The position numbers and the translations under genes are program-made. A stretch of DNA of 64,000 bases, from IMG/VR virus record IMGVR_UViG_3300022890_000011, positions 32,001 to 96,000 of that record. The stretch is one strand, 5' to 3'. Positions 8,059 to 63,723 of this stretch are shown piece by piece. Origin of the DNA: a virus. Every line of letters begins with the position of its first letter. Position 1 is the first letter of the stretch. The notes under the pieces are model-generated. The model saw nothing but the letters and a program-made list of their open reading frames with translations. It was not told the DNA's origin and searched no databases.

Positions 8059-8162
8059 AACTTAATTTCATTTTTTTCTATATATTAAAATACTATGTCG
8101 GATTTTTTAATTTAAAATGAAAATTATATGTTAATATATAGTGATATAAAATGAAATGAAAA

Positions 8163-8936
8163 ATGAAAAGATTACTCAGCTACGATAGATTCAATTTTGT
8201 TAAAGAACATATGATTACTGAAGATACTGAATTTAACCAGTATCAATTCGGTGTTGGTAATGCAAGTCCGTTGGGACCAGGTTATGGTTTTGCTGTTGAT
8301 CCAAGTTTGGGTATTTATACTGACCGAGATAGCCCATATACCGATTACTACTCTAGAACTTCAGGCTTAGTTAAAGATTTAATGGATGTTATTGATTATA
8401 CTAGAGGTAGCAAGGCCATGTCAGATGTTAAGTTTGATTATTTCATTGATGATATTTCAAAATATGAAAATATGAAAATATTAAGAATAAATGAAAATGG
8501 TAGTGGTTGGATGGATATTTTTATATCTTTTGATTTTGATGGTCAAGATTTTTTTGGTGTTTATAAAGATTTTAATAAACCATATATGAAACCAGTTTTA
8601 GAAAGTGAAATTATTTCTGGTAGACATTATGACTATATGGATAAAGAATATTATTTAAAATTAGATAATTATTTATTTAAAATATTAGAAAATTGGTTCT
8701 CACCTAAGAAAGGATTTTATAAGAATCATAAAGAATTATTACCAGTAAGAGATTCAATGGGACAAGAATATGATATTAAAAAAAATAAAGTTATTGAAAT
8801 TGTTGGTCAATATACAGACGAGAATTCAAAACAATATTTAGAAATGAAAATTGACGGTGAATTGTTTAGATTGGCTGGAAATAAATATTTTTATTTTAAT
8901 TACTGGTTTGAAGCCCTTCCAAAATTTGAATTATAA
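8163..8936 (+). CDS. Hypothetical protein with CTS-like N-terminus
   Basis: MKRLLSYDRFNFVKE; TTAATATATA at 8131-8140. Confidence 0.6.
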   Translation: MKRLLSYDRFNFVKEHMITEDTEFNQYQFGVGNASPLGPGYGFAVDPSLGIYTDRDSPYTDYYSRTSGLVKDLMDVIDYTRGSKAMSDVKFDYFIDDISKYENMKILRINENGSGWMDIFISFDFDGQDFFGVYKDFNKPYMKPVLESEIISGRHYDYMDKEYYLKLDNYLFKILENWFSPKKGFYKNHKELLPVRDSMGQEYDIKKNKVIEIVGQYTDENSKQYLEMKIDGELFRLAGNKYFYFNYWFEALPKFEL

Positions 8937-8937
8937 T

Positions 8938-9390
8938 ATGAAATATCTTAAAGATTATAATTCATGGGATAATAAATTATTAAAAGAATTTTACGAAGAA
9001 ACAGATAATTTAGAAGAACTTAAAAAAAGATGTGAATATTTAATTGATAAGTTTGGAAAACCCTCACTTGGTGTACCTGATAAGGATTATTTAAGTATTT
9101 TGATACCATTATCAAATCATGAAATTATTGATTTTTTGTGTGATATTGAAAATATTAAATCTTTTTCTCTTGAAATTTTAAGACCACCTATTACACTAGA
9201 TTATAAATTTAAAATATATTTTTTAAATGAAAATAACCCTAACGATAACTATGAAATATTTGCAATTTCAAGAGAAAAAGATTTAATTTTAATTGATTCA
9301 TCATATGAACAATATAAAATTATTGAAAATATTATTTTATTTGGAGATGTTGAACAAAGAATAACTACAAATCAAATGGGTTTACTTTAA
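8938..9390 (+). CDS. Dual-tagged hypothetical protein (MKYLKDY... / ...NQMGLL)
   Basis: True start ATG 8938 directly after the upstream stop; both terminal motifs present. Confidence 0.65.
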   Translation: MKYLKDYNSWDNKLLKEFYEETDNLEELKKRCEYLIDKFGKPSLGVPDKDYLSILIPLSNHEIIDFLCDIENIKSFSLEILRPPITLDYKFKIYFLNENNPNDNYEIFAISREKDLILIDSSYEQYKIIENIILFGDVEQRITTNQMGLL

Positions 9391-34600: not shown

Positions 34601-37600
34601 TTATCTTATTACTGTTACAGCACCAACTTCTACATGTTCTACACCTAAATGGTCTTTAAATATACAATACCAAGCATATACACCATTTTTAACATAATCA
34701 TTTATTTTACCATCCCATGTTTCTTTTATATCAAAGGATTCAAAAATCATTTCACCCCATCTATCATATATGAGTAAATTAAAGTCATTATTTATATTTT
34801 TGCCATATACTCTAAAATAATCATTTATACCATCATTGTCTGGTGAAAATGCTGTTGGTGCATAAAATGTGTATTGGTCTTGAACCTGTATATCTGTGTA
34901 TATTGTATCTCTACAATCATGATTTGTTGTAACTATTAGTTGAAGTATATAAGTTCCAGAATAATATGGATATACATGTATTGGGTTAACAATCGTAGAA
35001 TATTTACCATCACCAAAAATCCAATAATTTGTGACATTTAATAATGACATATTATTTATATAAATAGTTGGATTTATTATATTTACTATTTCATTATCAA
35101 CAATAAATTTAGCAGTTGGTAATGGATATACAGTTATCATATTAGTAATTGTGTTTGTATTTGAACAACCTTCTGATGAAGTTACAGTTAATGATATATC
35201 ATATACACCATAATCTTCAAATGTGTATGTTGGTGAATTACTATATGAAAAATTATCTCCAAAATCCCAAACATATGTCTGATTACTATCTAGACTTATT
35301 TCAAGAAAATTAACAGTAAGTGGTTGACACCCGCTCATAATATTAGATGACATGCTTATTGTAGGTTTATCATACACATTTATTGTATATGATTGTGTAG
35401 CTGTTGAACCACAATTGTCTGTTACAGTAAAATTATATGTTGTTGTTTGACTAGGATATGTAATATACGGTGAACTTTCATTATTATTATTTATTAGTAT
35501 TGTATATGGTGGTACTCCTAATGAAGGTGAAATGTTTATAGTTGCAGGTTCCCCTGGACAAACATAATCAGTATTTGAAAATATTGATAGTTGTACTGAT
35601 GTAGAAACTCCTATTGTTGTTGAAACATAATTACTTAAACAACCATTAGCATCTTCAATATGAACTACATATGTTGTTTCTATTATAGGTGATACATCAA
35701 TATTATTTATGGTTGTACTTGTGTTACTCCAAACATAATTGAATGGTAGTATACCACCAATACTTGATACTGAAATATTTGTACTTTGACCATTACATAT
35801 AGTGTGATCAGGTGTCATTGAAATAATTATTTCTGTTGGTTCATCTATTGTAAAATTAGTTGTAATTGAACAATCATTTAAATCTGTTATTATAATTGTA
35901 TACATACCAGGTGTTAAATTATTAAAATTTCCTGTTGATTGTGATGTACCATTAATAGAATATGTTAATGGTTGAACTCCTCCAGAAGCATTAATATTTA
36001 TATTTCCATTATTATATCCATAACAAGTTATATTTGTTGATGATTGAGTATTTATTATAATTTCAGGTGGTTCGTTTATTATTATTGGACTTATTATAGT
36101 ACAACCATTTAAATCTGTTATCAAAACATCATAAGTATTTGCACTTAATCCAAAGAAACAACCACTTAAATTTGTAACTATTCCTATATTATATGTTAAT
36201 GGTGGTAAACCACCAGAGCCAGTTATTGTAATTGTACCATTATTATTTCCAAAACAATCAACATTAGTTGAAGATATAGAATTAACAGTTAATATAGTGT
36301 TTTCATATATTGTTGAAGTTATTGAATCAGTACAACCATTTGAATCTGTTACTGTTACATTTATATCGCCATCACAAAGATTTATAGCTGTTTGTGTGGT
36401 TTGTGAATCATTCCAAAAATATGTATAGTTTGGTGTTCCACCATTTACTGTTACTGTAGCATCACCATCACAAAAACCGAAACAAGTAATATTTGTTGTA
36501 GAAATTGTTGCAGTTGGTTCTTCAAATATTTCAATATCAAATATAGTTACATCATTACAAGAATTTAGTATTGCCGTTTGTGTAATTGAATATATGCCAG
36601 GTGTGTTCCAAGTTATTCCAGTTGGATTTTCTGTTGTATCGTTTAATATTGAACCACCTGGAAAAGACCAAGTCCAATGTATAATTCCTCCAGTATCACC
36701 AGTATTCGTAAAATCAAATGAATTACCATTTAAACATTGATTAGGGTTTGTAATAAAACCTGATATAACATTACCAGTAGCACCAACAGTAACTATTTCT
36801 GTTTCAGTACAACCATTATCATCTGTAATTGTGATAATATATGGTCCTGCTGATAAACTATCAAACACATTAGTAGAAACTTGTCCTGAGCCTATATCAT
36901 ATAATAATGGTGGTGTTCCGCCATTAACTATAATAGTTACACTACCATCAGATAGACCACAAGTTTCTGGTGTGTTTGTTGATGTTATAGTTAATAATAT
37001 AGGATCAATTATAGTTATACTTGTAGATCCTGTACAACCCATATCATCAGTTACTATTACAGTATAAGTTCCTGCATTTAATCCTGTTATATTTTGAGTT
37101 GTGTCTGTATTTGACCACAAATAAGTATAAGGACCTGTTCCTGTTGTCATATTTAGTATTCCGCCTGTTCCATCAAAACTCCCACAACATAAAGGATTAG
37201 TAAATATAGAATCAACTATTAAATCAGGTAAAACAGTAACAGTAGTTGGAAATCGACAACTTACAGGCATCCATCCACATGATAAGCCAGGATTAACTAT
37301 ATCAACTGTTGATGTTTGGCAAATCCAGTCAATTTCTGTATTAGTATCTGTATTCCCTATTCTTTGTAAACTTGTATTTACTCCAGAACAAGGTAAAATG
37401 GCACCATTACCAATCCACTCTGGTCCTATTGTAATATTAAAACCATTAATTGTGGTATTCATACTGGCTATTTCCGCAGCAGACCATCCCCAAACACAAA
37501 AATCTACAACATTACCAACATCATCAATAATAATTGACCAACTTTGACTTGTTCCATTCCAAAAAATATTATTTCCCCAGTAATTAGCTGGATATCCAGA

Positions 37601-38653
37601 ATCATCACATCTCCAAACAACTGAACATGCAGTAAATGAAGAAGGTAGTTGCCAAAGTATTGAGTTTACAGAATTTATATCAGAATAAGAATCGCTAACT
37701 GCAGCAACCCAACCTGTAGTATTAATAGTTGTAGAATATAAATTAGAAATTTCAAGATAATCTTCACTACCAGAACCTCCCATAAATCCTTCTAATCCAG
37801 ATTCTGTGATTAGTATTGTACCAACTGTAGATGTTTGTCCTGTGGTTTGTGTCCAATATGTTGTAGTTGTTGTTAATGGAGGTGTTGTATAAACACCTGT
37901 TGTATCTAAAAGATTACCACCAATTTGGTCACTCCACCATTCATAATTTCCTAAAAGACCAGTTGCTGTAAGTGTGGTAAAATCGCCTGCACAAAGAGTT
38001 GTATTTCCAGTAATAGTAGGTGCTGGAATTACTTCAATTAAAAATGTATCTGAAACAATAATTCCTGGACAAACATCACATCTAACTTCGATAGTAAAAG
38101 TTGTAGTAGTTGGAGGAGAAGCATAATAAACGGATGTTGTGCTCCATGGTTGTATCACAGTTGCACCGTCTAAAATTTGATATTCATAATTGCCTGTACA
38201 ACCACCATTAATGGTAAAATTAATCGTATCTTGACCACCACCACAATTCATTATTACTTGTGGGTCTGGAGTAACAGAAGTTGGTCCACATGGGGGAGGT
38301 GGACAGTTTGCGATAACATTATTAATATTTGCACTAACACTACCACTGCCAACTAGAGTCCCCTGACTATCAGTTAATGTAAAATGACATTCTGAGGTCC
38401 ATGAACCAATAGGGTTAAATATTATATCTATATCATCTCCAAGATTAACAGGAACATCATAACAGACAGGTCCTGACCCAGTAGTGAAAGCAGGGCCGTA
38501 AGTTGCAACTAATGCCCCATTTACAAAAACATCGATTGTGTTACCATTCCAGCCATCACCATAGTCATCTGTTAGACAAACCTCATAAATGCATTGACTA
38601 TTAACAATTAAAGTACTTAAAAATATTGCAATTAAAAAAATTATTTTTTTCAT
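34601..38653 (-). CDS. Secreted SprB-repeat/PKD adhesin-like protein with T9SS type-B (gliding-motility-associated) CTD
   Basis: Sec signal peptide; GGTPPYxY..W..GxYxVxVTDxNGC repeats; PKD WDFGD; C-terminal FYAPTAFSPDNDGINDYF...IYDRWGE...G.VTVIR. Confidence 0.85.
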   Translation of the reverse strand: MKKIIFLIAIFLSTLIVNSQCIYEVCLTDDYGDGWNGNTIDVFVNGALVATYGPAFTTGSGPVCYDVPVNLGDDIDIIFNPIGSWTSECHFTLTDSQGTLVGSGSVSANINNVIANCPPPPCGPTSVTPDPQVIMNCGGGQDTINFTINGGCTGNYEYQILDGATVIQPWSTTSVYYASPPTTTTFTIEVRCDVCPGIIVSDTFLIEVIPAPTITGNTTLCAGDFTTLTATGLLGNYEWWSDQIGGNLLDTTGVYTTPPLTTTTTYWTQTTGQTSTVGTILITESGLEGFMGGSGSEDYLEISNLYSTTINTTGWVAAVSDSYSDINSVNSILWQLPSSFTACSVVWRCDDSGYPANYWGNNIFWNGTSQSWSIIIDDVGNVVDFCVWGWSAAEIASMNTTINGFNITIGPEWIGNGAILPCSGVNTSLQRIGNTDTNTEIDWICQTSTVDIVNPGLSCGWMPVSCRFPTTVTVLPDLIVDSIFTNPLCCGSFDGTGGILNMTTGTGPYTYLWSNTDTTQNITGLNAGTYTVIVTDDMGCTGSTSITIIDPILLTITSTNTPETCGLSDGSVTIIVNGGTPPLLYDIGSGQVSTNVFDSLSAGPYIITITDDNGCTETEIVTVGATGNVISGFITNPNQCLNGNSFDFTNTGDTGGIIHWTWSFPGGSILNDTTENPTGITWNTPGIYSITQTAILNSCNDVTIFDIEIFEEPTATISTTNITCFGFCDGDATVTVNGGTPNYTYFWNDSQTTQTAINLCDGDINVTVTDSNGCTDSITSTIYENTILTVNSISSTNVDCFGNNNGTITITGSGGLPPLTYNIGIVTNLSGCFFGLSANTYDVLITDLNGCTIISPIIINEPPEIIINTQSSTNITCYGYNNGNININASGGVQPLTYSINGTSQSTGNFNNLTPGMYTIIITDLNDCSITTNFTIDEPTEIIISMTPDHTICNGQSTNISVSSIGGILPFNYVWSNTSTTINNIDVSPIIETTYVVHIEDANGCLSNYVSTTIGVSTSVQLSIFSNTDYVCPGEPATINISPSLGVPPYTILINNNNESSPYITYPSQTTTYNFTVTDNCGSTATQSYTINVYDKPTISMSSNIMSGCQPLTVNFLEISLDSNQTYVWDFGDNFSYSNSPTYTFEDYGVYDISLTVTSSEGCSNTNTITNMITVYPLPTAKFIVDNEIVNIINPTIYINNMSLLNVTNYWIFGDGKYSTIVNPIHVYPYYSGTYILQLIVTTNHDCRDTIYTDIQVQDQYTFYAPTAFSPDNDGINDYFRVYGKNINNDFNLLIYDRWGEMIFESFDIKETWDGKINDYVKNGVYAWYCIFKDHLGVEHVEVGAVTVIR

Positions 38654-38676
38654 TTTATTTATTTATTTATTTTTAT

Positions 38677-41600
38677 TTATCTAATTAGTGTTACTACACC
38701 TGTATGTTCATTATAGACATCGTTATCTAATTTAAATTTACATAACCAAGTATATACACCATTTTTTACTATTTCTTTACTATTATTTCTTACACGACCG
38801 TTCCAACCTTCATTTATATCATTAGTTTCAAATATAATTTCTCCCCATCTATCAAACACATATAATGTAAAATTACTTTTTGTATTTATACCATTACCAA
38901 AGACTCTAAAATAATCATTAATTCCATCAAAATCTGGTGAAAATGCTGTAGGTGCATAAAACGTATATTCATTTGTAATAGTTATTTCCATGTATACAGT
39001 ATCTCTACAACCTTTATCACTTTCCGCAATTAATTGTACATTATATGTACCTGTTGGGTATGTTGGATAAACATGATATGGATTTATCATAGTTGAACCT
39101 GATTCATCTCCAAAATCCCAGTAATATTTTATTGCACCTTCTGAATAATTATTAAAATATATAGTAGGATTTATAATACTAACTATTTGTGGATCTGCTA
39201 TAAATGCGGCTTTCGGTACTTTATATACATATATTAGATTATTTATTGTTTGTGTATTTACACAATTATTTGAATCAGATACTTGTAAAGTAACATCATA
39301 TATACCACTTTCATTATATTCGTATATTGGACTATTACTATAAGATACCGAGTTATCTCCAAAATTCCATAACAAATTACCATTATTTGAACTATTAAAT
39401 GATACTGTTAATGGTACACAACCACTTATTATATCACTTGAAAATGAAACTATAGGTAAATCATATACTGTAAAATCAATACTTGCATCATCAATAGAAC
39501 CACACATATCAGTTATTGTAAATGTTATAGTTTCACTTTGATTAGGATAATGAAAATATGGAGTAGTTATTGTATTACCATTATAAGTAATTACATATGG
39601 TGGTACTCCAGAAGAGCCAACTAATTCTATATATACTTTTTCTCCGATACAAAGACTTGCATCAGTAGGTATTACTGTTAAATTAACACCTGGTTGTATA
39701 TTAACAACTGTTGAAACTACATTACCAAGACAGCCATTAACGTCTGTAACTTGACATACATAACTTGTATTTGATGTTGGAGAAACTATAATATTTGGTG
39801 TATTATCCATATGAGCCCATAAATAATTATATGGTGGGTTACCGCCAATAATGGTAACAGAAATATTTGCGTTTGCACCATTGCATATTGTTTGATTAGG
39901 TGTAATATTTACAATTATTTCATCTGGTTCAATTAATGTAAATGGTGTAGTAATTGAACATCCATTATCATCTGTTATAGTTATATTATATATATCAGGA
40001 GATAAATTAACAAAATTACCACTTGTTGATGAATAAGAACCAAAATTATATGTTAATGTACCTATACCACCACTCGCATTAATAGTTATTGTTCCGTCAT
40101 CATAATTATAACAAGTTGAATTTGTAAATGATTGGTTATCAATAACTATTGCATTTGGTTCAGTAATTATAATTTCTTGTGTCACTGAACAATTATTACA
40201 ATCAGTTATAGTAACATTATATGTATCAGCACCTAAACCAAAAAATTGTCCTGTTTGATTAGTTATACCTCCAAGTGAGTATGTAATAGGAGAACAACCA
40301 CCTGATGCAATAGTAGTTATTGTTCCATCGATATTACCATTACAAGAAGGTTCTGTAAATAGAAAATTATCTATATTGATTGGATTTGCTGCATTAACAA
40401 TTCCATTATTTATTGATGTGCAATTATTTGCGTCAGTTATTGTAACATCATAATTATTAGGACATAAACCAATTATTGTTTGTGTTATATCTGTAGTATT
40501 CCATTCATATGTATAAGGATTATTTCCATTTAATGGATTTGCTGTTGCTGTTCCATCACATAAATTTACACAAGTTTCATCTGTAGTTATAACTGTTACA
40601 AATGGCATTTCAAACACTTCAATTGTTAATGTATCAGTATCGTTACAACCTCCAAGATGTGTTGTTTGCGTTACATCATATTGTCCGGGAATAGTCCATG
40701 TTACGCCTGTTGGATTTTCATTTGCTGAAGACGACGGTGTTCCACCTGAAAAAGACCATGTCCATGTAATTCCACCACCTGTATCTCCTGTATTTGTAAA
40801 ATTAAAAGAATTACCTATTAAACATTGATCTATACTGGTAGTAAAACCTGAAGCAACAGAACCACTTGTACCTACTGTTACTAATTCTGTGATAGTGCAA
40901 CCATTAACATCTGTAATTGTAATGGTGTATGGACCTGCAAGAAGACTTGTAAAATTGCCTGTTGCCTGTCCGCCTGAGCCAATATTATAGCTTAAAGCTC
41001 CTGTTCCTCCTGTTGCAGTAACAGATATTGCACCATCTGATGATCCACATACTTCCGGTGTAGAACCCGAAGAAGATACTGTTATTTCTGGAGGAATTGT
41101 AACACTGATATTTATTACGTTCGGTGCACAAGTTGGATCGGTTACTGTTAAAGTAATATTTGGCGTTGAACCAGATGTGGAATAAGTTACAGTATGTGGT
41201 CCAACTGTATTTGCTGTAGCTAGAGTTGCCCCTGTTCCAAAATTCCATACATAAGTAGCACCAGGGTCAACAGTTCCCGGAACATAAGTAAATGTAATAG
41301 GTGAATCATAACAGTCTGGTGTCGTTGCAGTAATACTACCGGGAGGCGTTACACAACCCATGCAAGGAGCAGGAGCAGTATATGTTATAGTATAATTACA
41401 ACCATCATCAGTAAAATAAGAGTATAAAGTATGTGTGAGACCATCAGCCGGAATACCAGTTATACTAAAATTAGTAGGACTAAAAAAGTTTGGAGTAGGT
41501 ATAAAAGAATCAAAAAAACCGGGACCTGCATCGTCTTCAATAATTAAACTTCCTGTTGCAGGTGGATTAATATATACAATCGTACCTGTAATATCATAAG

Positions 41601-42159
41601 TATTTGTAACAGGATCACATGGACCAACATTTACTGTAATATTTGTCATTGTACAAGGAACAACAATACTGCAATCAGTTTCGCCGGTACTTGTTCCAGA
41701 TGAAAATTCCACATCAGTTGTACTATTAGAATAATTTGTTAAAAGAAACATATAAAATTCACCAACTTGGGCATTTGGAATATAACAATCTTCCACAGAC
41801 GCTGTGCTATAGCTACAATCTACAGTGTTACCAGCTGTTAATCCTGCTGTACATGCACCTGTTGCAGTAGTAAATGGTCCCCAACATATAAAATCAATAT
41901 CATACACACCAGGAGTTGATTCCATATGAATATTAATATTTCCCGCTACAGAAATCTGTAAAAAATACCAAACCGGATTTGGTTGTGTTAACAAACAACC
42001 ATAGTCTGGTCCTGTTTCTGAAGATGTTCCGGTTGCTAAAGGATAGTTATAAACCGAATCTGTACAAAATGGCTCTGCATCATTGCAAAAGGGTTGCTGT
42101 GCGTAACTTGTTATTCCAAATACTAATAGTAATATTAGTAAATTAATTATTTTTTTCAT
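38677..42159 (-). CDS. Paralogous SprB-repeat/PKD protein with T9SS type-B CTD
   Basis: Signal peptide; same repeat types; FYAPTAFSPDFDGINDYF...VFDRWGE...GVVTLIR. Confidence 0.85.
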   Translation of the reverse strand: MKKIINLLILLLVFGITSYAQQPFCNDAEPFCTDSVYNYPLATGTSSETGPDYGCLLTQPNPVWYFLQISVAGNINIHMESTPGVYDIDFICWGPFTTATGACTAGLTAGNTVDCSYSTASVEDCYIPNAQVGEFYMFLLTNYSNSTTDVEFSSGTSTGETDCSIVVPCTMTNITVNVGPCDPVTNTYDITGTIVYINPPATGSLIIEDDAGPGFFDSFIPTPNFFSPTNFSITGIPADGLTHTLYSYFTDDGCNYTITYTAPAPCMGCVTPPGSITATTPDCYDSPITFTYVPGTVDPGATYVWNFGTGATLATANTVGPHTVTYSTSGSTPNITLTVTDPTCAPNVINISVTIPPEITVSSSGSTPEVCGSSDGAISVTATGGTGALSYNIGSGGQATGNFTSLLAGPYTITITDVNGCTITELVTVGTSGSVASGFTTSIDQCLIGNSFNFTNTGDTGGGITWTWSFSGGTPSSSANENPTGVTWTIPGQYDVTQTTHLGGCNDTDTLTIEVFEMPFVTVITTDETCVNLCDGTATANPLNGNNPYTYEWNTTDITQTIIGLCPNNYDVTITDANNCTSINNGIVNAANPINIDNFLFTEPSCNGNIDGTITTIASGGCSPITYSLGGITNQTGQFFGLGADTYNVTITDCNNCSVTQEIIITEPNAIVIDNQSFTNSTCYNYDDGTITINASGGIGTLTYNFGSYSSTSGNFVNLSPDIYNITITDDNGCSITTPFTLIEPDEIIVNITPNQTICNGANANISVTIIGGNPPYNYLWAHMDNTPNIIVSPTSNTSYVCQVTDVNGCLGNVVSTVVNIQPGVNLTVIPTDASLCIGEKVYIELVGSSGVPPYVITYNGNTITTPYFHYPNQSETITFTITDMCGSIDDASIDFTVYDLPIVSFSSDIISGCVPLTVSFNSSNNGNLLWNFGDNSVSYSNSPIYEYNESGIYDVTLQVSDSNNCVNTQTINNLIYVYKVPKAAFIADPQIVSIINPTIYFNNYSEGAIKYYWDFGDESGSTMINPYHVYPTYPTGTYNVQLIAESDKGCRDTVYMEITITNEYTFYAPTAFSPDFDGINDYFRVFGNGINTKSNFTLYVFDRWGEIIFETNDINEGWNGRVRNNSKEIVKNGVYTWLCKFKLDNDVYNEHTGVVTLIR

Positions 42160-44938: not shown

Positions 44939-45709
44939 TTAATCTAATTTTCGTGTAGTTTCTGCATCGAATAATTTCTCATTAATATAATCTATAAGTT
45001 CATTGTATTCATTGTTAGAAATAAATTTGTCAAATATTGTATTATAAAGATCATATTGATGAATAGCATTAAAAAATATATCACATTCTAATTCATCTAT
45101 ATCTTTTTCATATGAAATATTAATTCTATAAAATTCTTCTTCCATTCCTTCAAATTTAATATTATAATCACACATTTGTAGACCTGTGTCTTCAGATAAA
45201 TTGCGATTATCCATATCAACACTAACCACACCATCAATCATATTTATATCTTTTTTAATTTCGTGAAATTGTGTATTAAAATCTGATTCGTTTTCTATAT
45301 TCGATTTTATATTTTCATCTCCCCAAGTATAATTCGGTTCTGAGAAATAATTTTCAAATGTTTTTAAAAAATAATCCTCATTCATTGATTCTTTTGGATA
45401 ATCCCAGTCTGTATATTTGCTTATATACATTGTAGATTTATCTTCAGATTCATAACTTTCTTTTTTAGATTTTTTAGATTTTCTTTTAGATTTTGGTTTA
45501 TCTTTTTTCTTTTTCTTTTCATCTTTAGAAACTTGATGAGTTGAAGATCCAGCTGGAAGATCACCAGAACCTTTTATAGAACCTGCCACATCACCTGGAG
45601 TAGATGAAGGTTGAGGAGTAACCACTGCACCCATACCACCTGTATTTCCAGCGGTCGCCATTGCCATGCCTTCTTCATTTATAAAATCATTGTATCTTTT
45701 TATTTTCAT
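44939..45709 (-). CDS. CTS-tagged protein with Gly/Pro and Lys-rich segments
   Basis: MKIKRYNDFINE; internal YFLKTFE second tag-like motif. Confidence 0.6.
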   Translation of the reverse strand: MKIKRYNDFINEEGMAMATAGNTGGMGAVVTPQPSSTPGDVAGSIKGSGDLPAGSSTHQVSKDEKKKKKDKPKSKRKSKKSKKESYESEDKSTMYISKYTDWDYPKESMNEDYFLKTFENYFSEPNYTWGDENIKSNIENESDFNTQFHEIKKDINMIDGVVSVDMDNRNLSEDTGLQMCDYNIKFEGMEEEFYRINISYEKDIDELECDIFFNAIHQYDLYNTIFDKFISNNEYNELIDYINEKLFDAETTRKLD

Positions 45710-45734: not shown

Positions 45735-46232
45735 TTAATAAATTTTATTTAAAATACCACGAGACTTAATATGATACCAATCTGTAAATGTTATTTCTTT
45801 ACTGGTTTCAGATCTATATGCATCAATATTTGACATTCTGTTTCCCATCCATCCATATTTTGAAAATTCACCTGATTTTGTTTTGACATATATTTCAATG
45901 AAAAAATCTTCACCATGATAATCATAACTTTTAGTAAAAGTTTCTAAAAAACTATTAATATCAATATTCAAATTGTAAAAATAACTAATAATCGAAATAT
46001 TATTTGAAATATCATAATCCATAATTCCATTTATATTTGTTATTATTAATTTAAAATTACTATCAGTTTCTCTTAATTTAATTTCTTCTTTAGGTTTACT
46101 AAAACCTTCTAATATAAAATCATCAAAAGATTTCATATTTCTCCAAACAGAACCAGGCACTTTTTTTGGTTGAGGAGTGACTATAGGTCCCATTCCACCT
46201 TGATTTCCTTTAGTACTATATGATTTACCCAT
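45735..46232 (-). CDS. Hypothetical protein with internal CTS-like motif
   Basis: MKSFDDFILE at residue 33; preceding GGMGPIVTPQP matches the neighbouring gene. Confidence 0.55.
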   Translation of the reverse strand: MGKSYSTKGNQGGMGPIVTPQPKKVPGSVWRNMKSFDDFILEGFSKPKEEIKLRETDSNFKLIITNINGIMDYDISNNISIISYFYNLNIDINSFLETFTKSYDYHGEDFFIEIYVKTKSGEFSKYGWMGNRMSNIDAYRSETSKEITFTDWYHIKSRGILNKIY

Positions 46233-55379: not shown

Positions 55380-55556
55380 ATGCCAAGAAATAAAATGAAA
55401 CCGGAAGAAAAAAAAATTAGTTTTGGTATTACACTTGACCCTTTAATTGTTAAATTGTTAAATGAACAATCAGAACTGGAAGGAAAATCTAAATCAAAAT
55501 TAATAGAAGATGTCGTTAAAGAACATTTTAAAAATATAAATTTAGAAGATGACTAA
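55380..55556 (+). CDS. Ribbon-helix-helix protein (58 aa, not in ORF track)
   Basis: MPRNKMKPEEKKISFGITLDPLIVKLL...SKSKLIEDVVKEHF. Confidence 0.6.
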   Translation: MPRNKMKPEEKKISFGITLDPLIVKLLNEQSELEGKSKSKLIEDVVKEHFKNINLEDD

Positions 55557-58500
55557 AATAGTACATTTAGCAGATATACATATCGTAAATAATCCACATG
55601 AACATTTTAAATATAGAGAACAATTTAAAAAATTATATGATGAACTTGATAAAATTAAACCAACTAAGATAGTTTTAGTTGGTGATACATTAGATAATTT
55701 TATTGAAATATCTCTAGAAGCAGAATTATTAACTTCAGAATTTTTGAACAAATTATCTACATATTGTGAAGTTATTGTTGTATTAGGCAATCATGAAATT
55801 AGGAAAAAAGATTTATCTAGAAAATCTTCAATAGGTTCTATTATTAAGATGATAAATAATAAAAATATTACATTTTTTGAAAAATCTGGTTTTTATGATG
55901 ATTCAACTGAAGATATAGTATGGGTAAATTATTCACATCTTGAAAAAACAATAATCCCTTGGAAAGATATTAAACACAACAAAACAAATAAAACATATAT
56001 TGGGTTATATCATGATCCTATTTATGGTTGTAAATTACCAAGTGGTTTAAGTATGAATAAAAAAAAGTTGCCTAAATTTGAAGATTTTTCCAATAATGAT
56101 TTAAATTTGTTTGGTGATATACATTTGCGTCAATTTTTTGATGATAAATGTGCTTTTTGTGGATCTTTCATGCAATTGAATTTTGGTGAAAAAGTAGAAA
56201 ATCATGGGTTTTTGTTATGGGAAATTGACAATGGTGAAATATCAGTTAAAGAATATAATTTGGAAAATGAATACAATTTTATAAATTTGTGTGTTGGAAG
56301 TGGCGTGAATTATGATAATTTAAATATATTAACAAAACATGCGAAAAAACATTCAAAATTCAAGGTACATTGGAAAGAATTAAGTTCTCAAATTAATCTT
56401 GAAAATGAGGTTAAAATAAGAAATTATATAGGTTCTAAATATAATATAGATCCAAATAAAATTAAGATTGATAAAGAATTTTTATATACATCAATAATAG
56501 AATCACAAATGCTAAGTGAAAGTGTTGACATAACAGATAAAACTATTCAACATGAAATTTTTAATGAATATCTCGAAAATAAAGGATATAGTGAAGAACA
56601 AATTAAACAAATATTAGAAATAGATGATATTGTTGATGAAAGGTTAGAATTAAAACCTATTTTAAATAACATTAATTATTCACTTGATGAATTATGGATA
56701 GATAATTTTAAGTCATATGGTTTAAAAAATAATTTACCATGGAAAGACAGTAATGGAGTTATTCAAATAACAGGAGAAAATCAACAAGGAAAAACAACAA
56801 TAATTGATGCAATAACATATTTATTTTTTGGAACTACAATGGCCACAAATATTTTAGGTGGTGGTAAAAAAGAAAAATTTGGAGATCAAAGATATATTAA
56901 TAATAAAAACAAACATGATTATTGCAAAGTTGATGGTAAAATAACAATTGATGGTGAAACATTAACATTAAAAAGAAGAACTGATAGACAATGGACAAAA
57001 AATAATACAGTTAAGGCTTGTCCTACAATTTTCACTATTTTAAATGATCAAGGATTGCCTTTAAATGAAGAAACAAGAGCTAAAACCCAGAGAAAACTTG
57101 ATTCTATATTGGGTACATTTGATGATTTTGTTAGAATGATTTTAACAAATGCTGATAATTTAAATGCTTTGTTATCTTTGAACAGGTCTATTTTTATAGA
57201 TTCTTTAATTAAAGATGCAGGTTATGATGTATTTGATAAGAAATTAAAAGAGTTTAAATCTTATAAAAAAGAAGAGGAAGAGTCTGAAGAAACTATTAAT
57301 ATAAATATTATTGATGTTGAATCAGATATTAAAGAATCTGAAGAAGAAATATCAGATTATGAAGATTTAAATACAACTAATTTGGATAAAATAGAAATTA
57401 TAGATATAAAACTTAAAACTTCATTTAATGAAAGAGACGAAGAAATTAAGAAATTACATAAGATTGATGCTGAAATTGTAGAGTTAGATATTGATGAGTT
57501 AAATCAAAGACTTGAACAATATAAAGAAGCAATTATAACTAATCAAAATAAACAAACTAAAAATTCTGAATATATGAAGAATCTAAAACAAGAGTTTGAT
57601 GAAGATAAGTTAAAATCTTTGTATAAAGAAGTTCAAAATATAGATAAATCCGTGATGGATATTCAGTTATCTATCAAAGATACAGATAATAAAATATCAA
57701 AAGAAAATCAAGTTATTGATAAAGTAGATGATAAAATTGATAATATGAAAGATAAAGAGATTGATAGAAAGAGATCTTTGATTGATGATATTAATGATAA
57801 AATAAATAATTTAGATTCACTATATCAAAAAGCGGTTGACGATAAGGTTAAAGATGTTGAAAAAGAAGTTAATAGTATTAATAGTGAAATTAAATTAACT
57901 AAGTCTGAATTAAAACATATTAGAGAAACAGGTATTGGTAAGAAGAAAGAGATTTCTAAATTAGAAAAAGAAATTGAAGATTTAGAAGATAGTAAAGTTT
58001 GTCCTACATGTAATAGAGAGTGGGATGATGAAGATAAACAGAAACATATTAGAAATTGGGTAGATAAATATAGAGATAATATAAAAATTTTAGATCAAGA
58101 AATTCAGGGTTTATTTGATAAAGTTAAACCAGAACAAAGTAAATTAATGACATTAAAAAGTTTGATGTTAGAGAAAGAGGAAAAAGTTTTTGATTTAAAG
58201 AATGATATTATAAGTGGATTCAGTGATTTAGAGATATTAAAGGAAGATCATTTAAAGAAGAAAGAGGAATTAGTGGATAATATAACTTCTATTGAGGTTA
58301 TAATTAATGAGATTAAGGATGGTGATTATAAGAATGTCAAAATTCTAGAAGAAAATATACTTAAGGGTTTAACAGTAAAAGAAAATTCTTTAAAACAAAT
58401 TAGAATTTTTCAATTAGAAAATAAAGAAAAAGTACAGCTAATTAAGGATAAAAAATCTGAGATTGAAACTGTCGAAATGGATATAAATCTCTTAGAGAAA

Positions 58501-59295
58501 GAGCAAGAACAAGTTAAGAAATGGCAAGTTCTTTTTAATGATAATGAAAAACTTAAATTAGAGATTGATAAATACAGACTTACTATTGAGAAATTTAATG
58601 AGAAGTTCAAAAGATATAATGAGCATCTTAATTATATTGAAGACAATAAGAAGATTGAGTTATTGATTTCTGATATTGAATTTTCTATATCTGATAATGA
58701 AGATCGTAAAAAATTATTAACAGATAAGATTTCTAATAATAGTATTGAAATTAATATTTATAAAAAAGAAATAGAGAAAAATCTTAAAAAAATTGAAATA
58801 TTTAAAGAACAAGAAAGGAGAAAATCTTTATGGAAAGAATATGAAACACTTGTTCACAGAGACGGATTACCAAGTTACTTACTCAAAAAGTCAATACATT
58901 TAATAAATCATAAATTGAGTGAAATGTTAGGTGGTGTTGATTTTGATGTTTATTTTAACGAAGATTTAAATCTTAGAATGTTTATGAAATCTAGTCCAGA
59001 TGTAGAGCAAAATGCAATTGAAAGTTCAGGTAAGGAGCGAGTTTTTATCGCTGTTGCGTTAAAATCAGCATTAAGACACATAAATAATAGAAGTAAAATT
59101 AATATGTTGTTATTGGATGAGATTATGGGAAAATTATTGAATAAATCTGTTGATGAATTTAGAAATTTACTATTGAATCTAAAAAATGATATCGACAAGA
59201 TAGTTATCATAGAACATATACATCCAATACAACCTGATTATATCATTGATGTAATTAAAAATGAAGATGGAATTAGTTCATTTAATTTAAGTTAA
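55549..59295 (+). CDS. Fused SbcD/Mre11 nuclease - SbcC/Rad50 ATPase (T4 gp47-gp46 equivalent)
   Basis: HLADIH, VGD, GNHE and GDIH phosphoesterase motifs; Walker A GENQQGKTT; coiled coil with CPTC zinc hook; SSGKE signature; LLLDE Walker B; IEH. Confidence 0.9.
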   Translation: MTKIVHLADIHIVNNPHEHFKYREQFKKLYDELDKIKPTKIVLVGDTLDNFIEISLEAELLTSEFLNKLSTYCEVIVVLGNHEIRKKDLSRKSSIGSIIKMINNKNITFFEKSGFYDDSTEDIVWVNYSHLEKTIIPWKDIKHNKTNKTYIGLYHDPIYGCKLPSGLSMNKKKLPKFEDFSNNDLNLFGDIHLRQFFDDKCAFCGSFMQLNFGEKVENHGFLLWEIDNGEISVKEYNLENEYNFINLCVGSGVNYDNLNILTKHAKKHSKFKVHWKELSSQINLENEVKIRNYIGSKYNIDPNKIKIDKEFLYTSIIESQMLSESVDITDKTIQHEIFNEYLENKGYSEEQIKQILEIDDIVDERLELKPILNNINYSLDELWIDNFKSYGLKNNLPWKDSNGVIQITGENQQGKTTIIDAITYLFFGTTMATNILGGGKKEKFGDQRYINNKNKHDYCKVDGKITIDGETLTLKRRTDRQWTKNNTVKACPTIFTILNDQGLPLNEETRAKTQRKLDSILGTFDDFVRMILTNADNLNALLSLNRSIFIDSLIKDAGYDVFDKKLKEFKSYKKEEEESEETININIIDVESDIKESEEEISDYEDLNTTNLDKIEIIDIKLKTSFNERDEEIKKLHKIDAEIVELDIDELNQRLEQYKEAIITNQNKQTKNSEYMKNLKQEFDEDKLKSLYKEVQNIDKSVMDIQLSIKDTDNKISKENQVIDKVDDKIDNMKDKEIDRKRSLIDDINDKINNLDSLYQKAVDDKVKDVEKEVNSINSEIKLTKSELKHIRETGIGKKKEISKLEKEIEDLEDSKVCPTCNREWDDEDKQKHIRNWVDKYRDNIKILDQEIQGLFDKVKPEQSKLMTLKSLMLEKEEKVFDLKNDIISGFSDLEILKEDHLKKKEELVDNITSIEVIINEIKDGDYKNVKILEENILKGLTVKENSLKQIRIFQLENKEKVQLIKDKKSEIETVEMDINLLEKEQEQVKKWQVLFNDNEKLKLEIDKYRLTIEKFNEKFKRYNEHLNYIEDNKKIELLISDIEFSISDNEDRKKLLTDKISNNSIEINIYKKEIEKNLKKIEIFKEQERRKSLWKEYETLVHRDGLPSYLLKKSIHLINHKLSEMLGGVDFDVYFNEDLNLRMFMKSSPDVEQNAIESSGKERVFIAVALKSALRHINNRSKINMLLLDEIMGKLLNKSVDEFRNLLLNLKNDIDKIVIIEHIHPIQPDYIIDVIKNEDGISSFNLS

Positions 59296-59516
59296 AATCT
59301 TTTTCACTTTTATAGTTTTTAGTACTGTTTAAAGTTTTTTTAGTTATACACAAATTATTTATTCCACCTATTATAATTGGTAGAATGTTATATTTTCATA
59401 CTTATATATATTAAAAATAAAAACCAAAAAGTATAAAATTAGTATAAAAATTGAAAAAATACTTAATTTAAACATTAATTAAATAATTATATATAATATA
59501 AAATGAAATTATATTC

Positions 59517-59699
59517 ATGAGGAAGAAGATCCCAGATGAGAAAAAGAAGAAAAAAACTGCTGTTTCTATTGACAAGGAATTATCAATTATTTTAATAGAT
59601 TTTTTAAAAGATAAGAATTTAAAAAGATCTAAATATATAGAAAATCTTATCAGAAATGATATGGAAAAACGAGGCAAGGGAATAGAAAGGGAATTCTAA
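59517..59699 (+). CDS. Ribbon-helix-helix protein
   Basis: KTAVSIDKEL...KRSKYIENLIRNDM. Confidence 0.6.
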   Translation: MRKKIPDEKKKKKTAVSIDKELSIILIDFLKDKNLKRSKYIENLIRNDMEKRGKGIEREF

Positions 59700-59721: not shown

Positions 59722-62700
59722 ATGGAAGTATATAACGTAAAATATTATAAGAGTGGAATTTATGAAGGTATATACACTTTAAAAATAGAAGAAGAAGTTG
59801 TGTCTGGTCTTTTAATAGGCAATCATCAAGTAACACCAAGTGAAATAAAACATAAATTTACATTAATTAAAGATGATAATTTAATAGATGAATATTTAGA
59901 TCAATGGGAATCAAACTACATTTTTAAAAATGACCGAAGTAATAGAGATATTAGATTTGAGAATCAATTTTTAGAAGTTGAATTGACAAGACCTATTTTA
60001 AAATCTATTTGTGAAGATGTTGATAACGGTGTTTATGAATATGAATATCAACAAGATTATTACTCAATGAATTTTGATGTTGATAAATATCAAAAGTATC
60101 TTATTAGAAAAGAAAGAAAAAATAAATTAGATAGAATACGTGAATCCGATAAATAATTTTATTATGAGTCTTAATATTAAAGAAAAATATAATGATATTT
60201 ATAAGTTGATTTTAGAATATGATTTGAATATTTTATTAAAACCAAATAATTCAAATATTGAATTTGTTATTGAATATGATGGTTATCAAATAGAGATAAA
60301 ACAAGGTATAACTGAAAAAGAATTTCAAAAGAAAATTATAAAGTTTCTTAGAAAGATTAAAATGAAGAGGTTGAAAAGTGAATAGAGAGTTTTTAAATGA
60401 TAATAAACAATTAATCAGAGAATATTTGTGTGATTTATGTACTTGTGATGTTGATGTTATTGAATTTTTTTTATATCCTGAAGATGGTAGGTGGAGAGTT
60501 ATGTATATGAATATTGAACTTGATTATTTTAATTATGATAGGATAAAATTAAATGAAAATGATGTTATTAAATATATTAGGAAACGTAAAATAGAGAGGG
60601 TAAAAGACAATGATAACAAATGAACAATATCTTAGTACAAAGTATGGTAAGAAATTAATCGAAATTATTGAAGATGATGATGACTGTTGTGTTTATGTGT
60701 TAGATATAAATGGTATTATCATTGTTCAGAAGTTGGTTTTGTCAGATGAGGATAAAAAAGAGTATTTAAGAATTAGTAGAAAACTAAAATTAGAGAGGGT
60801 AAAAGATGTTTGATTGGAATATAGTTGATGATATGTTAGATCGGTTAGATTTACACATGAGTATTATAAATTTTAATGGTAATGATAATATAGTTTTTCA
60901 GTATAAGGTTGAAAAAATAAGTACTAAAAATATACGGAAATTTAATTCTGATCATGATTTATTAAAATATCTTCAAAGATTAGAACGAAAACTTAAATTA
61001 GATAGAGTTAATGATAAATAGAGAATATTATTTTGATGAATTATGGCCTGAAAAACCTTTGCCATCACCACAAGGAAAAATAATATATCTTGATTATGTA
61101 TATCCTAATTTTAATATAATAGAAATAGAGAAAAACATAATAGAAAGGTTAAATGGAAAACTGGATTGAAGTAAGTGATAGATTAGATACAAAGACGAAA
61201 TATATTTAGTATTGGAGTATGTAGGTAATTCTAGAATAGATGATTTGCCAATTTATAGAATTGGATATAGTAATATTTTGTGTAATACAAATGAATTAAA
61301 TAAATATATTAGATATAATTATGTCAAATCCATTTCTGAGGCTCATACTAACATTACTAGTATTGAGCAAAATGTGATACGTAGATTCACTTTAAATAAT
61401 ATGATTATTAAGATTTATAAATATAATAAAGATGTACTAAATGAAAATTAAGGAAATAACAAAAGAATTGATGACTGAAGCATTTCAAGAAATTCTTAAA
61501 AAATATGATTTAAATGATATTGTAAATGGCGATTTTAAAGAAATGGGATTTGTAATGGATTATCCAGTTAAACTTAATGAAGAAGTTGAAGAGGATGATT
61601 TATATACTATTATAGAGGAAGAAATTATTGAAAAGTTCAAAGATAGATCTGGAATGAAAGAAAAGATTAAAGAAATTAAACGTAAAGAAAGGAAAGATAA
61701 AATTGAGAGACTTAGAAACGAGTAATTTATTAGATATTTATAATTATTGTAAGAGTTATTTGGATGACACATTTTCAGTTTTACAATTAATTAAATCATA
61801 TTGTGTTATTCAAAATAAAGAGTTATTTTTAACAATGAATATTGATGATAATGCATTTGAAAATTTAAGTGAAAAAGTACGATATATTTGTGAGAAGGTT
61901 ATTTCTAAAATTTATCCATCTTTTGATTTAAATCTTATAACTATAAATATAACAAAATCTGATTTTGATTCGATAAATGTTGATTTTGAGTTTAATAAAC
62001 CGGTTCTTAAAGATGCATTATGTAAAGAATTTACATCTAAGGAGTTTATTAGATTAGATAGAAAACGTAAACTTAAAAGAGTTAAATATGGAAGATAATT
62101 TAATATTTGTAGAAGGATATGTTATTAAATATTTACATGATAATATTAATATATTAAGTAATGAGTTAAAAGTACAATTAAATTATTTAGATTCTCAGAA
62201 TTTGAAATATTTTTTTGAGATTATAATTAGTGGTGGTGCTTATTCTTTGCAAGTTAATGAAATGGATTGTAACTTAGAATTTATACCAGATAAAGAATTT
62301 TTAAGATATGTTAGAAAAGAAAAACTAAAAAGAATTAAAGATGCTAGATAAAGATATTATATTATTAATGATTCAATATACTGATAAACAAATTGATGAA
62401 AAATTTAATGAATGTGAAATTGATTTACCAACTGAATCTTTAGAATATAATTATGAAGTTGATTTAGTTAAATCTAAAATAGAGAGATTAAATAGATTAC
62501 AAGAGTCAATTGTAGAAGCTAAAGAAGTATTAAATTATAGATTAACTGAAAATAAATTGACAAATGAATCTATAATTAATTGTTTAGTAGAATGTGAAAG
62601 AATAGACGGTTCTGTTTATTGTAATTATCATTCATTTGATTTTGATGAAAAGAGGTATAATAGAATTATGAGAAAATTAAAATTGAAAAGAGTTAGAGGA

Positions 62701-63153
62701 ATATGAATCAGAAAATAGTTAATAAATTAAATAAAGCTGCTCATAAATTACATCAAAGGTCAATGTACGGTGCAGCTAATCATATTATAGTTAGCGAAGA
62801 ATATATGGAAGTTGTTCAATTGATGTTTGATATTCAAACAATAGAACAAAATATAATAGAAAGATTAAATGATAAGTGGAACAGTGATTAAAAAGTATAA
62901 AGAATTAGGTATTAGGTCTATTATGATTAATGGTAATGATACAATGTTTGTTTATATTGATGATTGGTATTTATTTAAAGATTGGTGTGATTTTCCATTC
63001 ATGGTTATTTCTACTGAAAAAAATTGGAATATGAATTCAATAACCAACAATCCTTGGAGTATTCAAATAGAAGATCCTGAAACTAAATTAAAACTTTTTG
63101 ATAGAAAACTCAGGAAGTTAAAAATAAAAAGAATTAAAAATGAAGAAATTTAA
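59722..63153 (+). CDS. Array of small overlapping ORFs, ten ending in an RKxK[LIM]xR[IVL] tag (59722, 60140, 60378, 60610, 60806, 61441, 61703, 62088, 62341, 62869)
   Basis: Translationally coupled ORFs with unrelated bodies and a shared basic C-terminus. Confidence 0.7.
61011..61169 (+). CDS. 52-aa ORF with major-capsid-like peptide (not in ORF track)
   Basis: MINREYYFDELWPEKPLPSPQGKIIYLDYVYPNFNIIEIEKNIIERLNGKLD*. Confidence 0.5.
   Translation: MINREYYFDELWPEKPLPSPQGKIIYLDYVYPNFNIIEIEKNIIERLNGKLD
62703..62891 (+). CDS. 62-aa ORF with major-capsid-like peptide
   Basis: KLNKAAHKLHQRSMYGAANHIIVS; C-terminal IEQNIIERLN shared with the 61011 ORF. Confidence 0.5.
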   Translation: MNQKIVNKLNKAAHKLHQRSMYGAANHIIVSEEYMEVVQLMFDIQTIEQNIIERLNDKWNSD

Positions 63154-63316
63154 AGTAACAAAAGGCAACGGAGAACCAGTAATCATGGAAGAAACTGAAA
63201 TTTATCCTATGATAGAACAAAGATCATCAGCATTTGCTGGTATGTTAAAAGGATTAAAGGTTGGAGAAGGAGTATATTCTAATGATACAATGACAAATTT
63301 CGAAAGAGTGGAATAA
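63140..63316 (+). CDS. Small hypothetical protein (58 aa, not in track)
   Basis: MKKFKVTKGNGEPVIMEE...FERVE*, coupled on both sides. Confidence 0.5.
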   Translation: MKKFKVTKGNGEPVIMEETEIYPMIEQRSSAFAGMLKGLKVGEGVYSNDTMTNFERVE

Positions 63317-63723
63317 TGAAACAGAATATTGAAATAGGAAATGGTCGAAGTTATCATGTTGACACATTTGACATGGTGGCTGATCCTTCTTTTAAAAATT
63401 CTACTTTAGGAGAAATTGAACATCCTGTACTATCATATACAGAACATTTAGCAAATTGTATTGAAACTAATATTTCATATAATGAGTATATCGTAGAACG
63501 AACGAAAATTAATATACCATATAAAGATAAACAAATATGGAAACCGTTGATTGAAGATTATGTTGATAAACCGTGTTCTTCTTTTTGTCAAGAAAAATTT
63601 TTCAAACAACCAATTAATTTCATTAAAAGTTTTTTTGTTAAAGAAAAAGTTGATTTTTCAATTAAAGATATTAGAAATAATGTTGAAAGAAATAGAAAAG
63701 AAATAAAAAACTTAGAATTATAA
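63316..63723 (+). CDS. Protein with prohead-protease-like peptide
   Basis: TFDMVADPSFKNSTL and LSYTEHLA/ISYNEYIVE segments. Confidence 0.45.
   Translation: MKQNIEIGNGRSYHVDTFDMVADPSFKNSTLGEIEHPVLSYTEHLANCIETNISYNEYIVERTKINIPYKDKQIWKPLIEDYVDKPCSSFCQEKFFKQPINFIKSFFVKEKVDFSIKDIRNNVERNRKEIKNLEL

Follow-up and report, generated by a model that had tools for sequence, protein, structure and literature searches.

Four small open reading frames (ORFs), which we designate A, B, C, and D, lie near the end of a 64,000-nucleotide stretch of viral DNA (the window; bases 32001 to 96000 of IMG/VR record IMGVR_UViG_3300022890_000011, referred to below as G000, 166,601 bases long). Their products resemble isolated pieces from the major capsid protein (MCP) and from the protease-scaffold protein of a clade of huge phages related to LR756501. 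All four sit among small plus-strand genes with stop/start overlaps, in a run that starts at 59517 (Table 1). A preliminary description of the window had singled out A, C, and D as candidate immune decoys, and the three ORFs and the peptides quoted for them are present at the coordinates it gave, on the plus strand.

Table 1. Features of the four mini-genes and their surroundings (window coordinates; aa, amino acids)
Feature	Position	Strand	Remarks
ORF A, 52 aa	61011-61169	+	ATG overlaps the upstream gene's end
MCP piece in A, residues 14-36, motif KPLPSPQGKIIYLDYVY	61050..61118	+	clade MCP profile positions 107-129; T4 gp23 residues 114-131
Tail of A, IEKNIIERLN	61125..61154	+	in common with B and C; A-type proteins of relatives end in RK-type tails instead
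ORF B, 79 aa, TTG start	61212-61451	+	copy of the MCP insertion-domain hairpin
ORF C, 62 aa	62703-62891	+	overlaps the upstream gene by ATGA
MCP piece in C, residues 2-41	62706..62825	+	A-domain helix-strand; clade MCP profile positions 424-463; T4 gp23 residues 352-389 (helix, then NFIIAS strand)
Tail of C, IEQNIIERLN	62841..62870	+	final codons hold the start region of the next gene
ORF D, 135 aa	63316-63723	+	1-nt start/stop overlap with each neighboring ORF
Protease piece in D, TFDMVADPSFKNS	63364..63402	+	matches the clade protease stretch TYD.VADPGF
Scaffold-type repeats in D, two to three (LSYTEHLAN, NISYNEYIVE)	63406..63528	+	like the NIxYSEYIAE repeats of the scaffold part
Promoter-like T[AT]ATATATA	59487..59495	+	30 nt 5' of the ATG at 59517
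Array of coupled small genes with terminal RKxKLxR[VI]K	59722..63153	+	surrounds A to C

The record, with a G+C content of about 24%, is estimated by CheckV to be 58% complete. Its family-B DNA polymerase is 54 to 66% identical to those of LR756501 (735 kb) and relatives, all huge uncultured phages, and the window encodes adhesins of the type IX secretion system type found in Bacteroidota. The source is a huge Bacteroidota-type phage, kin of LR756501. No capsid protein or prohead protease gene was found on the 166.6-kb record in genome-level and profile searches: Pfam gave nothing for Gp23 (PF07068) at genome level and no hit for Peptidase_S77 (PF03420), and the clade protease-domain profile had zero matches. 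Because both genes are absent from the record, the phage's own head genes are expected on the missing sequence. A blastn search of the region against GenBank phages gave no match, and IMG/VR scans for close relatives with D, C, and a Rad50-like protein as queries gave nothing useful; the two matches of D were rejected as a chance NISYNEYIV word in a 501-aa protein.

The missing parents were replaced by those of the clade. LR756501 and LR756502 encode a Gp23-family MCP and, just upstream, an S77-like protease fused to a scaffold of NIxYSEYIAE repeats. With the LR756501 MCP as the query, 68 loci were gathered from IMG/VR, and profiles were made from them of 48 MCPs and 51 protease-scaffold proteins. 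These were run against all 871 ORFs of at least 35 aa in the record (74,885 residues). The stretches copied in the mini-genes are among the most invariant of the MCP, and the piece in A is the returning strand of its most conserved stretch. Residues 1 to 17 of B (EYVGNSRIDDLPIYRI) correspond to EFLGFSRIDG.PMFRI of the MCP; the tail-like IEQNVIRRF, at residues 51 to 59, precedes a read-through stub. The common tail IE[KQ]NIIERLN described earlier for A and C is genuine, the last 25 residues of the two proteins being 56% identical (E = 2e-4 within the genome's 871 ORFs), and the motif IEQN[IV]I[ER]R recurs in B.

In D, the last strand of the protease is joined directly to the first scaffold repeats, and the catalytic His (GEFDHP) and Ser (VSSRAAG) regions are missing. 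The alignment to the protease-scaffold profile comprises positions 152 to 164 only and then scaffold repeats, which in D are internal (residues 39 to 61) rather than N-terminal, with one I-V-E site after them. The clade stretch TYD.VADPGF is nearly invariant, its sole variable residue being the fourth (A/C/L). GEIEHP in D is more plausibly the beginning of its repeats than a catalytic His region. In D, the protease-scaffold junction is present as a collapsed copy from which the catalytic part is missing. The aligned stretches of A, B, and C are 23, 17 to 56, and 40 residues long and do not cover an HK97-type fold of several hundred residues. A full fold is impossible for these products when each covers only 17 to 40 residues of an MCP of about 600, and D has neither catalytic region.

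The preliminary description had matched these pieces to T4 gp23 and gp21. Those segments do occur in T4 gp23 and gp21 and provide the best local alignments of A, C, and D in a comparison with gp23, gp24, and gp21, but the matches are not significant, either by BLASTP (E = 0.11 to 6.5) or in shuffle tests (p = 0.017, 0.067, and 0.066). These p values are no evidence because the ORFs were picked beforehand from about a hundred. C scored 12.4 bits against Pfam Gp23 (E = 0.1, model positions 223 to 258), below the 24.4-bit gathering cut-off, and A and B had no hit; this score and the match of D to phrog_207 (E = 0.13) are within the noise typical of these AT-rich ORFs. Searches of PDB sequences with A, C, and D by phmmer returned only noise, and tblastn of C against GenBank phages gave no match. 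A weak match of C to phrog_18782 was rejected, that family being absent from five relatives.

Chance resemblance in an AT-rich proteome would fit the lack of significance in the T4 comparisons and the weak Pfam hits, with E values of about 0.1, that are common for these ORFs. We nevertheless regard chance as very improbable, because it is contradicted by unbiased ranks among the 871 ORFs, by family-profile E values of about 1e-5, and by the uniqueness of the protease motif. With the clade MCP profile, B ranked third (E = 0.004, profile positions 207 to 261; shuffle p = 0.001), C fifth (E = 1.1), and A sixth (E = 1.7), the last two at the positions in Table 1. The set of A, B, and C had been defined by the tail alone, before this ranking, and by our own arithmetic three predefined ORFs would all be among the first six of 871 with a probability of about 2e-7. 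D ranked second with the protease-scaffold profile (E = 4e-5) and matched the LR756501 protease-scaffold protein with an E value of 6e-11 by phmmer. A profile made only of mini-ORFs of relatives had A as its single top match (E = 1.2e-5; next best 0.28), and a profile of the relatives' A-domain pieces likewise had C (E = 3.5e-5; next best 0.32). The motif D.VADP occurs once in the 74,885 residues, in D, whereas 0.007 occurrences are expected per shuffled proteome; in LR756501 the strict protease motif is found in the protease only. With D as the query, 21 of 21 relatives were matched in the scaffold-repeat region of the protease-scaffold gene, and the sole other match was one LR756501 mini-ORF with a DPYGEE tail.

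These profile comparisons indicate that the likeness of A to D to head proteins is real and that it is visible against the MCP and protease-scaffold protein of the clade, not against T4. The claim that the ORFs carry isolated conserved stretches of a gp23-type MCP and a gp21-type protease is thereby borne out, and the alignment to capsid and protease profiles that had been suggested as a check is significant for D with the clade profile and for A and C with the mini-ORF profiles, but not for A and C with the MCP profile. An AlphaFold2 model of one capsid protein of the clade (mean pLDDT, a per-residue confidence score, 48) was too poor for mapping the pieces or for a fold search. The ORF at 61441-61725 was considered as a capsid spine-helix piece, which would have been a fourth piece in MCP order, and was rejected, the spine-piece profile missing it.

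Other parts of the record also carry sequences of head-protein type. The best MCP-profile matches of the record are two minus-strand genes at 44939-45709 and 45735-46232 in the window (256 and 165 aa; E = 5e-6 and 3e-5), whose N termini copy MCP profile positions 42 to 84 (GMGAVV.PQPS..PG...GSGD), a segment taken to be the N-arm of the mature protein. Similar proteins of relatives unite a head-address tag, the segment of profile positions 42 to 84, and a basic tail. The top match of the protease-scaffold profile (E = 2e-6) is a 93-aa plus-strand ORF at G000 8689-8970, 23 kb before the window, which begins with two scaffold-type repeats (YIEYIAEN..IKYANYLAE).

Similar mini-genes are abundant in the clade. 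A census with the MCP profile in 21 related records found, besides true MCP genes, many short matches in open frames of 73 to 460 aa, with E values down to 2e-29, and together these pieces span nearly every part of the protein. The protease-domain profile found pieces in 6 of the 21 records, including an inactive copy in which the His is replaced and one with three stops. Each piece is followed in frame by a tail shared locally, and the tails are lineage specific: seven records have RK-type tails (RKKKLxEIFPEF, DRKSKLDKIN...), and LR756501 and one other record have DPYGEExW. In LR756501, DPYGEExW is the terminus of 41 ORFs and lies internally in a further 55, for example, 552409-556034 (minus strand) and 145582-146127 (plus strand); the heads of the DPYGEExW ORFs match the MCP, the protease-scaffold protein, a fiber-like protein, and both ends of the tail sheath.

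The A-type family, defined as proteins under about 200 aa with P-x-(S)P-x-G-x-h-h-Y-h-D-[FY]-x-Y and a profile match, was searched for with its profile in 1.84 billion representatives, and 1,225 clusters matched with E ≤ 0.001; among the best 150 of these, 146 are no longer than 250 aa and 141 start with Met. ORF A has both the motif and the profile match. Pfam Gp23 was the top-scoring family for all 10 A-type members tested and the only Pfam hit for 8 of them; the alignments fell within model positions 4 to 62, and four exceeded the gathering cut-off. The earlier association of A with the Gol area of gp23 was apt, and the family matches the first 60 positions of the Pfam model. Six of the 10 members matched phrog_28442, a PHROG family of unknown function, and five matched phrog_138 (major head protein). 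Many A-type members also copy the N-terminal part of the MCP.

A to D are members of a clade-wide class in which a piece of a virion structural protein is joined to a shared tail, a class of mini-gene that has apparently not been described so far. The analysis extends the preliminary description by ORF B, by parents that are proteins of the clade rather than those of T4, by the clade-wide scale, and by the pieces of tail sheath.

One explanation for such genes is that they are mostly nonfunctional debris of a duplicated head module, shattered by cassette insertion and by recombination at tail-coding junctions, in which frames stay open by chance or as carriers of the start of the next gene. 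A, B, and C follow the same order as in the MCP, and in LR756501 a single MCP stretch (positions 418 to 551) is divided into two adjacent mini-ORFs by a tail and a stop; these two features hint that some pieces came from the break-up of a duplicated head gene. It is also clear from B, with its TTG start and its reading through the tail, and from the protease piece with three stops in one relative that copies die, and the codons of the tail double as the start region of the next gene. Yet MCP order is not kept in two relatives, every piece in several lineages is followed by its tail in frame, and the A-type family consists of 1,225 clusters of intact short proteins with a conserved motif. The ratio of nonsynonymous to synonymous substitution (dN/dS) of orthologous piece genes is 0.4 to 0.8, versus 0.15 to 0.2 for the adjacent conserved gene, and in orthologous pairs with dS of 0.4 to 0.75 the copied motif and the tail are conserved while the remainder drifts. 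We therefore consider debris a decidedly unlikely explanation for most of these genes.

The reading we favor, with confidence only slightly better than even, is that the mini-proteins are selected competitive mimics of full-length structural proteins. They probably compete with those proteins for a binding partner. This reading builds on the homology, the family membership, the spread across the clade, and the fast evolution with motif and tail kept; binding, a target, and a benefit to the phage are what we infer from them. A copied stretch would share the binding partner of its counterpart in the full-length protein. Candidates for the A type are EF-Tu and a sensor of the gp23 Gol region; other pieces may bind neighboring subunits, scaffold, or chaperones, and the shared tail would supply a common second function. 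Competitive mimicry is favored because connector-type pieces are copied, because the first quarter of T4 gp23, whose most conserved region is Gol, binds EF-Tu (PMC3014915), and because Avs7 senses MCP together with EF-Tu (PMC13581612).

Several observations weigh against competitive mimicry. The matches of A and C to the MCP profile are not significant taken alone. Some of the pieces, the C-type and spine-helix pieces for example, are buried core elements and thus poor mimics of a folded surface. B looks partly decayed, and this ORF, together with the protease piece with stops, shows that there is turnover with some dead copies. A dN/dS near 0.6 to 0.8 is also compatible with weak constraint. 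Finally, the absence of the phage's own MCP and protease from the record means that the pieces are not comparable with their true parents.

The proposal of the preliminary description, that the mini-proteins are strict immune decoys, is a special case of mimicry: the pieces would occupy the host sensors, or the EF-Tu site, by which capsid, protease-scaffold, or sheath proteins are read, would do so without activation, and would thereby shield the genuine proteins from detection. In the defense literature, MCP is reported to trigger CapRel, Avs7/Dsr1, Lit, and TIR systems, and CBASS is reported to respond to capsid scaffold or MCP (PMC13581612, PMC13728456, PMC3014915). Among the pieces the Gol-type region is the one found most often, and the genes evolve fast, vary among lineages, and are placed in arrays of small accessory genes, all of which would suit a role as decoys. 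However, the Gol peptide alone activates Lit in T4 (PMC3014915), and a copy might therefore trigger a defense rather than blunt it. Pieces of core elements are unable to mimic folded surfaces, no host sensor is known, and there was no example of a protein-fragment decoy in the literature searched. Strict decoys thus appear doubtful, while still a serious contender.

It is similarly conceivable, although we would not expect it, that a large class of mini-proteins of huge phages, and possibly of other gp23-type phages, blinds sensors of nascent or unassembled capsid, scaffold, and sheath proteins. Many bacterial defenses are triggered by capsid, scaffold, and tail proteins, which raises the question of how phages cope whose core proteins are unchangeable. 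If decoys they are, the mini-proteins would be the first protein-fragment decoys in phage counter-defense, copying the EF-Tu-binding Gol region and other pieces and made in quantity. The 1,225 clusters for the Gol-type piece alone are a sequence-defined candidate set, and EF-Tu, with its T4 precedent, is directly testable as a partner.

A further alternative is that the mini-proteins are assembly factors or virion components, with the pieces docking on subunits of the phage's own capsid, scaffold, or sheath and serving there as caps, as chaperones, or as minor lattice proteins, and D being carried into the prohead as cargo by its scaffold-type repeats. Many of the pieces come from the MCP N-arm, an E-loop-type hairpin, and the sheath ends, which would be inter-subunit connectors in HK97-fold capsids and contractile sheaths, and scaffold repeats are copied too. 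D has two repeats of the kind that serve as head-address tags in this genome, as well as an IVE site of the T4 protease type. One subclade keeps genes for an inactive protease-like protein and a mini-MCP adjacent, beside a clamp-loader-like gene. Against these points, there is no clade-wide conservation of the repertoire, the genes are outside the head and tail modules, and they evolve three to five times faster than the neighboring gene. We rate an assembly role as unlikely. Even so, if the role is in assembly control, the mini-genes would represent a new route of gene making, in which a phage's own structural proteins are cut up and each piece is given a common tail.

In locus L123 of that kind, a 156-aa protease-like protein (1960-2430, minus strand), in which the catalytic His is replaced and an RK motif lies internally, is encoded by a clamp-loader-like gene's neighbor; it is followed by a gene for a 166-aa mini-capsid protein (1446-1946, minus strand) and then by a well-conserved 94-aa gene. 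Locus L122 has the same arrangement, as does L121 but without the protease-like match. This module of inactive protease, mini-MCP, and 94-aa gene was not found on the G000 record.

The mini-genes have partial parallels in known systems. One is the Gol/Lit/EF-Tu system of T4 gp23 (PMC3014915): what A and its family copy is the homologous stretch, the most conserved one, close to the start of gp23-type MCPs, and many A-type members add an N-terminal part, so that together they span about the first quarter of gp23, which in T4 binds EF-Tu. The difference is that in these phages the stretch forms a gene by itself, has its own tail, and exists in many copies and variants. T4 internal proteins carry a capsid-targeting sequence cut by gp21, and D has head-address-like repeats and a possible I-x-E site, but in D the repeats are internal and come after a copy of the protease's last strand. 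The T4 partial duplicates alt.-1 and alt.-2 are also short ORFs derived from part of a virion-protein gene; they lie beside the parent and have no shared tail, whereas the ORFs here are in accessory arrays, have a common tail, and form large families. PeSL-type cassettes are likewise coupled small genes in which the tail-coding junction doubles as the downstream start region, but the variable heads of the ORFs here are traceable to structural proteins. The proposed logic of competing for a host factor is that of phage anti-defense mimics and sponges, none of which, among those reviewed in PMC13728456, is a fragment of the phage's own structural protein.

The promoter-like element T[AT]ATATATA at the head of the run has its next plus-strand occurrence at about 69690, about 10 kb away, and A to D are therefore placed inside one long translationally coupled unit. 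In all, 37 ORFs have the element no more than 70 nt upstream of their start, usually at -28 to -36 (window examples at 8132, 19447, 29594, 31241, 46289, 53522, and 59487), and it also lies 5' of the portal and protease genes of LR756501. It is likely a general promoter element. An attempt to read the timing of the operon from it was abandoned because it precedes several functional classes of genes and is no more frequent than base composition predicts.

Most neighbor genes of A to D carry a terminal RKxKLxR[VI]K. The Arg and Leu codons of these RK tails vary, which indicates that the constraint is on the peptide. The strict pattern, with the tail within the last 20 or so residues, is found in 17 ORFs of the genome, and A, B, and C do not have it. 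The possibility that the A/C tail is a detectable RK tail found no support, the RK-tail profile missing the tails of A, B, and C; the tail of A has only h-E-R-[LV]-[NK] in common with the RK tail. An RK-tailed neighbor at 62341-62706 (plus strand) has an internal KSKIERLN (residues 44 to 51) that resembles the A/C tail. Beyond the window end, ARKLKMDRIK lies inside a P-loop ATPase-like ORF at window coordinates 73785-74153 (G000 105785-106153), which is match number 17 of the RK-tail profile (E = 5e-4).

Immediately 5' of the operon of small genes, 55549-59295 (plus strand) encodes a 1248-aa protein in which an Mre11-type phosphoesterase is fused to a Rad50-type ATPase with a zinc hook. CHU_C type IX secretion signals are carried by two large SprB/PKD proteins encoded at 34601-42159 (minus strand), where the G+C content is higher than in the flanks. 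At window coordinates 67067-75607, beyond the window end (G000 99067-107607), at least eight proteins have the N terminus MKIRxGFVSNSSSSS.

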